Part shown: positions 56,902-57,075 of the stretch, one piece after another
How positions within the stretch are numbered: position 1 is the stretch's first letter
How the letters are laid out: each line of letters begins with the position of its first letter
Assembly (NCBI RefSeq): GCF_046105845.1
Contig: NZ_CP151004.1
Source: Escherichia coli
Lineage (GTDB): Bacteria; Pseudomonadota; Gammaproteobacteria; Enterobacterales; Enterobacteriaceae
Length of the DNA stretch: 64,000 bases
Direction: 5' to 3' (one strand)
Position numbers and translations under genes: made by a program
The notes under the pieces: model-generated
Database searches by the model: none
What the model was told of the DNA's origin: nothing
The model's input: only the letters and a program-made list of their open reading frames with translations

Positions 56902-57075
56902 TCACATTATTTTGATTTTGACATCATAACTTTCAAGCCCGGTCATTTTTTCTCGTGCGGTGAAGCGAATTTCAGAGACTTCTTTCCCTGTATTCTTGTT
57001 CAGCTCGGCGATTTTTTGCGCGATAAAGTCGGCGATTTCCGTTTCGGCTTGTTTTTTTAACTCTTCAATATTCAC
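56902..57075 (-). CDS. gnsB: GnsB (secG/fabA suppressor family small protein), GTG start
   Basis: Manual translation on minus strand: VNIEELKKQAETEIADFIAQKIAELNKNTGKEVSEIRFTAREKMTGLESYDVKIKIM (57 aa). Not listed in ORF track. Confidence 0.75.
   Translation of the reverse strand: MNIEELKKQAETEIADFIAQKIAELNKNTGKEVSEIRFTAREKMTGLESYDVKIKIM

Follow-up and report, generated by a model that had tools for sequence, protein, structure and literature searches.

Does translation of gnsA depend on ymcE, the small reading frame whose 3′ end runs into it? In the 64,000-nt stretch of Escherichia coli DNA analysed here (the window), the two frames lie on the minus strand and share 11 nt, GTGAATATTGA, that contain the TGA of ymcE and the GTG of gnsA. 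A sequence-only reading of this stretch had suggested from this arrangement that two small cold-shock-associated proteins are produced by coupled translation. The published RNA-end maps and the comparative genomics argue against that suggestion; gnsA probably has its own promoter, leader, Shine-Dalgarno (SD) sequence and terminator, and its overlap with ymcE is probably incidental. Coordinates of all features are collected in Table 1.

Table 1. Features of the ymcE-gnsA locus in window coordinates.
Feature	Coordinates	Strand	Details
cspG	57469..57681	-	PF00313; RefSeq annotation
ymcF	57270..57458	-	62-aa CxxC small protein; PF23641; RefSeq annotation
Annotated ymcE (sfa) frame	57065..57295	-	76 codons; TGA 57067..57065
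Intrinsic terminator of the cspG-ymcF transcript	57241..57265	-	stem-loop 57265..57247 plus T-run; within ymcE codons 11-19
Promoter-like element	57155..57183	-	-35 TTGAAT 57183..57178; 17-nt spacer; -10 TATAAC 57160..57155
Dominant transcription start site (TSS) of the locus	57147	-	Cappable-seq; U00096.2 1051218 = U00096.3 1051995
gnsA 5′ leader	57076..57147	-	72 nt; 5′ end from Cappable-seq TSS
Possible leader uORF	57078..57110	-	10 codons, VLLSFKTRRG; GTG 57110 to TAA 57078; speculative
SD sequence AAGAGG	57082..57087	-	6 nt ahead of GTG; seen in the sequence
gnsA CDS	56902..57075	-	57 codons + TGA; GTG start 57075..57073
A7 homopolymer in gnsA codons 6-9	57052..57058	-	frameshift hot spot
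gnsA 3′ hairpin and RNA 3′ end	56863..56895	-	hairpin 56895..56868; 3′ end 56863

Exact translation of minus-strand positions 56902-57075 gave VNIEELKKQAETEIADFIAQKIAELNKNTGKEVSEIRFTAREKMTGLESYDVKIKIM followed by a stop codon, with no internal stops, and so bore out the clean 57-aa frame from the GTG at 57075 that had been proposed. The overlap of about 11 nt with the 3′ end of the 76-aa ymcE frame was likewise confirmed. The same reading held that the gene had been missed by the open reading frame (ORF) track. A listing under the default 60-aa minimum indeed lacks it and contains, over ymcE and ymcF, only frames of 87 and 86 aa; once the minimum is lowered to 20 aa, the gene is present as a 57-aa minus-strand frame with a GTG start. 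The length cut-off, and not the GTG start, therefore accounts for its absence, and RefSeq annotates the exact CDS. In a profile search, residues 1-54 matched all 54 positions of Pfam PF08178 (GnsA/GnsB), i.e. the full domain, at 122.3 bits (cut-off 27, E = 7.6e-36), which sets the frame well apart from a chance ORF. The protein has the traits of the family, namely a length of about 57 aa, an N-terminus MNI(E/D) and a central (A)REKMTGLxxYD motif; M1, N2, I3, K7, K21, M44-L47, Y50, K53 and I54 are invariant in family alignments.

The name GnsB-like, which the sequence-only reading had used, holds for the family and not for the gene. The gene is the known, annotated gnsA, the chromosomal member of the GnsA/GnsB family, and not gnsB, because of its identity to GnsA, its synteny and its RefSeq annotation. 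All 57 of 57 residues are identical to those of crystallised E. coli GnsA (PDB 4XO2). K-12 gnsA (b4517, formerly yccL; PDB 4XO1/4XO2) has the same GTG start, coordinates and 11-nt ymcE overlap, and K-12 records match the 431-nt ymcE-gnsA stretch at 100% identity. RefSeq gives identical gnsA boundaries and the same overlap in the best-matching strain and in MG1655 (ymcE, 1051847-1052077; gnsA, 1052067-1052240). The neighbours (cspH, cspG, ymcF, ymcE, yccM and torS) are those of K-12, and gnsA adjoins yccM-torS, which is the synteny of gnsA; the K-12 locus differs in carrying IS1D between gfcA and cspH, where the window strain has none. A 1.1-kb stretch around the gene, annotated as cspG, ymcF, ymcE, gnsA and yccM, is present in more than 5,390 of 5,426 complete E. 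coli genomes. On that stretch gnsA lies downstream of cspG (57681..57469) on the same strand, and not upstream of it as had been stated.

Assignment as gnsB was considered and rejected. Identity to K-12 GnsB (b1550, formerly ydfY; translated from the Qin prophage) is 67%, and both the Qin or lambdoid prophage context and an ATG start are lacking. GnsB of K-12 and of lambdoid phages shares the Pfam family, the 57-aa length, the N-terminus and the AREKMTGLESYD motif with the window protein; the phage homologues are all of the GnsB type and 65-67% identical to it. The gnsB cassette also follows the same logic (a csp gene, a CxxC small protein, a terminator, a promoter-like block, an SD sequence and gns). 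It differs in being prophage-borne, in having an ATG start, in lying after cspI-ynfQ-ynfR-ynfN and in having a 171-nt gap before the gene with no overlapping ORF. A homologue of ynfN was searched for at the window locus and not found.

GnsA is annotated, crystallised and studied. Overexpression of gnsA or gnsB is described as raising the content of unsaturated fatty acids and as suppressing secG-null and fabA6(Ts) mutations, in papers citing Sugai et al. (2001, 2004). An A7 homopolymer in the coding sequence is a frameshift hot spot; it has shrunk to A6 in O157:H7 TW14359 and also in TW10573, where the RefSeq record calls gnsA a frameshifted pseudogene. In some strains gnsA has been lost, by frameshift or by IS1, with ymcE still intact, an observation that is neutral for the toxin-antitoxin model considered below.

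To place the RNA ends of the locus, we used published MG1655 Term-seq tables (Adams et al. 2021, PMC7815308) and published Cappable-seq TSS tables in U00096.2 coordinates (Ettwiller et al. 2016, PMC4782308), both of which cover K-12 under a few growth conditions. The latter list plus-strand TSSs, with scores in parentheses, at 1050528 (9.0), 1051169 (3.5), 1051218 (74.8), 1051226 (12.4) and 1051247 (1.7) (PMC4782308). Window positions were obtained as 1109142 minus the MG1655 coordinate. The offset from U00096.2 to U00096.3 we take to be 777 nt. With this offset, the cspG TSS at 1050528 falls on window position 57837, the first base of the match to Rfam RF01766 (cspA-thermoregulator) in the cspG leader, and this coincidence validates the mapping of the TSS coordinates. 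The dominant TSS of the locus then lies at 57147, inside the ymcE frame, with a score about eight-fold that of the cspG TSS (74.8 versus 9.0). Minor TSSs map to 57139 and 57118 and a weak one to 57196.

A promoter-like element lies just upstream, with its TATAAC hexamer 7-8 nt 5′ of the mapped start. The block GATTATTGAAT-N17-TATAAC/TATAGA/TATAAA is kept in alignments of Escherichia, Citrobacter and the region upstream of Qin gnsB. A consensus promoter scan passed over this element, since its -10 hexamer, TATAAC, does not end in the canonical T; it was located by cross-genus alignment and then matched to the published TSS. We infer that these conserved hexamers serve as the working promoter of gnsA. 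Upstream of it, Term-seq 3′ ends at MG1655 1051900/1051901, window 57242/57241, coincide with an intrinsic terminator of the cspG-ymcF transcript and were categorised as internal, falling 54 nt inside the ymcE frame and 166 nt before gnsA (PMC7815308). A compensated hairpin occupies the equivalent place after ynfQ in Qin. The primary gnsA 3′ end was mapped to MG1655 1052279, window 56863 (PMC7815308), next to a 3′ hairpin. Neither gnsA nor ymcE is named in the SMRT-Cappable-seq supplements or in the Weaver preprint.

Taken as a unit, these elements would yield a monocistronic gnsA mRNA that runs from 57147 to 56863, about 285 nt. In the model that we consider likely, RNA synthesis would begin at 57147 from a sigma-70-like promoter (TTGAAT-17-TATAAC), the 72-nt leader, which is unstructured, would present the canonical AAGAGG SD sequence 6 nt ahead of the gnsA GTG (57075), and the RNA would end at the hairpin, at 56863. 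The upstream cspG-ymcF transcript would end at its own terminator (57265..57241), and the ymcE frame would do no more than span this terminator together with the promoter and leader of gnsA. The 57-aa product is a helical-hairpin homodimer; made in excess, it raises unsaturated fatty acids and suppresses secG-null and fabA6.

The start codon and ribosome-binding site of gnsA were compared across 19 family loci, comprising the window, 17 loci of other species-representative genomes and Qin gnsB. The start position aligns in all 19, with proteins that begin MNI, MNV, MKI or MDV; GTG serves as the start codon in all Escherichia loci and in two from Citrobacter, and ATG in the rest. In the window, the frame is closed by a TAA 6 codons 5′ of the gnsA GTG. 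The gnsA start is unambiguous because of this upstream TAA and the aligned starts of the homologues, and an N-terminally longer GnsA is ruled out on the same two grounds. In strains with T57096C the frame stays open up to the next stop, at 57144..57142, and the added stretch contains no start codon. A purine-rich SD core stands at the same position in 19/19 loci, most of which have no ymcE; it reads AGAGG in 17 of them (Escherichia, Citrobacter and Qin gnsB) and ACGAGG in two Franconibacter loci. From these alignments, the GTG at 57075 probably initiates independently of ymcE.

The leader that carries this SD sequence is strongly conserved and essentially invariant among Escherichia species. 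Seven species-level genomes of that genus share its final ~60 nt without a difference, and a core, CTGGCGyGTTG...AGACCAGAAGAGGT, is recognisable in Citrobacter and Franconibacter. The leader contains a CTGGCGTGTTG box. RNA structure was rejected as the reason for this conservation: by minimum free energy the leader is less structured than its shuffles (z-score +1.2), RNAalifold found 0 consensus pairs in 15 sequences, and no Rfam family matched over it.

One alternative would couple gnsA translation to a short upstream ORF (uORF) within its own mRNA rather than to ymcE, which would explain why a leader so unstructured is ultra-conserved. The candidate uORF lies entirely inside the mapped leader and ends 2 nt 5′ of the gnsA GTG, and in 16 of the 19 family loci a uORF has its stop between -5 and +1 relative to the gns start, including TAATG and ATGA overlaps. 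Against this count, seven of the 19 loci are from Escherichia and non-independent, the loci as a whole are phylogenetically correlated, and chance stops are common in the A/T-rich spacers between SD sequence and start. The frames, lengths and peptides of the uORFs vary between clades, the window uORF start has no obvious SD sequence upstream, and no such uORF is present at Qin gnsB and at one Citrobacter locus. We regard coupling to a leader uORF as unlikely.

Whether ymcE is itself a gene bears directly on the remaining alternatives. Its frame matches only its own self-defined families, PF15939 (YmcE_antitoxin) and NF007379 (protein YmcE), which it does by construction. In a database of 5.8 billion proteins, YmcE homologues were found almost only in Escherichia and Shigella, with one partial record labelled Salmonella, and GnsA homologues reach Citrobacter and Franconibacter. 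Among the family loci, homology to ymcE is essentially limited to Escherichia; the exceptions are three Citrobacter loci with weak, partial tblastn hits. The cassette of a csp gene, a CxxC small protein, a terminator and gns is common to the E. coli chromosome, Qin and Citrobacter. The place of ymcE in it is taken by ynfN in six Citrobacter loci and in Qin, and three Citrobacter loci have neither frame.

Substitution patterns set the frame apart from the genes around it. Relative to the window, dN/dS of ymcE is 0.84 in E. albertii and 1.41 in another Escherichia genome (L006), versus 0.00-0.08 for cspG, 0.00-0.13 for ymcF, 0.06-0.10 for yccM and, across other Escherichia species, 0.00-0.09 for gnsA. 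Synonymous divergence in the ymcE frame is 0.02-0.095 versus 0-0.6 in its neighbours (0.45-0.62 in the E. albertii comparison). Among 10 E. coli strains, counts of synonymous/nonsynonymous polymorphisms are 6/0 for cspG, 9/2 for ymcF, 4/0 for gnsA and 1/10 for ymcE (ymcE versus neighbours, Fisher p = 1e-5); the counts exclude one strain (L029) in which IS1 sequence is misaligned in gnsA. Twelve RefSeq strains have nine YmcE protein accessions, versus one for GnsA and one for CspG.

In all six of the other Escherichia species-level genomes the start or the frame of ymcE is changed. The ATG has become AGG or ATA in four (L004, L005, L006 and L007), and the frame is broken in four, by an in-frame TGA after a 6-nt deletion (L004), a 1-nt deletion (L007 and L009) or indels (L008). 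In the same six genomes gnsA is intact, as are the ~60 nt that lead up to its GTG. Within the window, the ymcE frame overlaps the last 26 nt of ymcF and holds no ATG, GTG or TTG downstream of the TSS at 57147, so the main gnsA mRNA cannot encode YmcE. The weak TSS at 57196 precedes two internal ymcE codons, TTG36 and ATG44.

Judged by these patterns, ymcE is probably not a conserved protein-coding gene and has instead the signature of constrained non-coding DNA, and we infer that it is not translated into a functional protein. Within E. coli the 76-codon frame is open in 11/11 sequences compared, and it is annotated by PGAP in every record among the matches listed (5,414 genomes with a match). 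Since the frame is intact in these sequences, ymcE may encode a young, E. coli-specific peptide. Reportedly, sfa (ymcE) itself gave no suppression of fabA6 in the 2001 work of Sugai, and GnsA levels are said to have shown no cold-shock response there. An ASKA ymcE clone is credited with a small butanol-tolerance effect.

Translational coupling of the two frames would have ymcE and gnsA on one mRNA, with ribosomes that end at the TGA (57067..57065) re-initiating at the GTG at 57075, 11 nt upstream. The stop/start overlap is real and annotated, and, as in coupled overlapping pairs of the ATGA/TAATG type or longer, the upstream stop lies just inside the second gene; the ymcE ORF is intact in the sampled E. 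coli strains, and one phylostratigraphy paper gives ymcE-gnsA as an operon. The pair differs from coupled pairs in that the upstream start is off the main mRNA, the upstream frame is unconserved, and gnsA has a strong SD sequence of its own in an open leader. Against coupling stand the terminator inside ymcE, which is used in vivo, and the dominant TSS, which lies beyond every start-like codon of the frame. Elsewhere in Escherichia, ymcE is truncated or shifted and sometimes stops short of the gnsA start, and the SD sequence, the GTG and GnsA are kept; Citrobacter, Franconibacter and Qin gnsB have the same SD sequence and start without ymcE. With dN/dS of ymcE near 1, and a gnsA SD sequence that is conserved and predicted to be accessible in its unstructured leader, the coupling that had been proposed is unlikely. 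The ymcE frame is open over regulatory DNA, and the 11-nt overlap thus appears to be a by-product and not a coupling device. Read-through from cspG is conceivable, as the terminator probably falls short of 100% efficiency. It may give rise to cspG-ymcF-ymcE-gnsA transcripts, for instance upon cold shock, and coupling may occur on these rare RNAs, a minority of the total.

The weakest alternative takes the pair as a type II toxin-antitoxin (TA) system, in which GnsA is a growth-inhibiting toxin and YmcE a labile, co-expressed antitoxin that neutralises it. Pfam and RefSeq carry the names GnsAB_toxin, YmcE_antitoxin and ‘addiction module toxin’; the label traces to Wei et al. (2015) and to reviews, YmcE-GnsA is counted among the TA pairs of E. 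coli in reviews and in work citing Wei et al. (2015), and gnsA overexpression is described as altering persister counts. Like relBE and mazEF, the locus has two small, adjacent, same-strand ORFs of which the first overlaps the second. We consider this reading very improbable, as the supposed antitoxin occurs almost only in Escherichia and Shigella, with the toxin family present without it in Citrobacter, Franconibacter and lambdoid phages; YmcE shows no purifying selection (dN/dS 0.84-1.41 versus 0-0.09 for gnsA), has a disrupted or shifted frame in four Escherichia lineages that retain gnsA intact, and has no DNA-binding or any other known domain in the profile search; the strong gnsA TSS leaves out the ymcE start; and a modelling paper that includes ymcE-gnsA itself sets the pair apart as an outlier, in which toxin exceeds antitoxin. 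Co-occurrence of the pair, constraint on the antitoxin, co-transcription and a DNA-binding domain, all features of TA systems, were not seen at this locus, and the ‘antitoxin’ frame contains a terminator as well as the main promoter.

The RNA-end maps and the comparative genomics thus correct the name of the gene and its orientation relative to cspG, and they argue against both ymcE-gnsA coupling and a widely copied TA label. We lean, by a small degree, towards the further view that ymcE is not protein-coding at all. It would then be a fortuitously open stretch over a terminator, the gnsA promoter and an ultra-conserved leader; GnsA would be a solitary small lipid-homeostasis protein, no toxin of a TA pair; and the leader, perhaps together with its 10-codon uORF, would be an undescribed cis-regulatory element. 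If ymcE is spurious, one Pfam family and one NCBIfam family would rest on a non-gene, as would several TA compilations and a fold-switching prediction.

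The leader of gnsA (57076-57147, minus strand) is identical across Escherichia species despite dS values of 0.1-0.6 in the neighbouring genes. Structure prediction together with a check for conserved structure found none in this 72-nt leader, and Rfam contained no family that matched it. The leader contains a short upstream reading frame (uORF) ending just ahead of the gnsA start. Among the compared loci L004-L020, the start of the gnsA/gnsB family gene (gns) in Citrobacter and Franconibacter is in most cases overlapped by the uORF stop, through the junctions TAATG, ATGA, TAGTG, or GTGA.

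Further upstream, the cspG leader and coding sequence returned a full-length Rfam match to the cspA thermoregulator, the first base of which (57837) is the exact position of the published Cappable-seq cspG start site. The 3′ end of ymcF together with the terminator matched the Salmonella small RNA STnc220 below threshold (34 bits, E = 0.0014; the gathering score is 60), which hints at a 3′-UTR-derived small RNA from the cspG-ymcF transcript. At the other end of gnsA, U-rich tracts flank a hairpin on both strands; given its position between the convergent genes gnsA and yccM, the hairpin may terminate transcription in both directions.

Features of the cspG-gnsA region (window coordinates)
Feature	Position	Strand	Details
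gnsA 3′ hairpin region	56853-56895		between convergent gnsA and yccM
A7 homopolymer	57052-57058	minus	gnsA codons 6-9
uORF VLLSFKTRRG	57078-57110	minus	10 codons; stop 2 nt short of gnsA GTG
STnc220 (Salmonella sRNA), sub-threshold Rfam match	57232-57312	minus	ymcF 3′ end + terminator
cspA thermoregulator RF01766, full-length Rfam match	57415-57837	minus	158 bits; spans cspG leader + CDS

The comparison of ten E. coli strains showed the A7 homopolymer contracted to A6 in two, O157:H7 TW14359 and TW10573, and RefSeq records gnsA as a frameshifted pseudogene in both while ymcE is intact. Separately, an IS1 insertion truncates gnsA in the river-water isolate E. coli KTa005 (L029 1736-2523, corresponding to about window 56990). 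There agp directly follows the truncated gene, indicating that yccM-torS and further genes were deleted.

YmcE and GnsA Pfam domains occur together in public database “proteins” of 82-130 aa (P0095, P0103, P0104, P0106, and P0115). Loss of one nucleotide near window 57136 would bring the ymcE frame into register with that of gnsA, and the TAA that normally closes the gnsA frame upstream is removed by the polymorphism T57096C. Combined, these two changes could be the origin of the fusion records.

A common cassette is found on the E. coli chromosome (window 56880-57700), in the Qin prophage (L003 7590-8690), and on Citrobacter chromosomes (L010-L018), in the order csp gene, CxxC small protein YmcF/YnfQ, terminator, optional ynfN, promoter block, and gns. 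The chromosomal cspG-gnsA locus looks like this cassette minus the ynfR/ynfN segment of ~280 nt, and the ymcE frame runs across the resulting junction.
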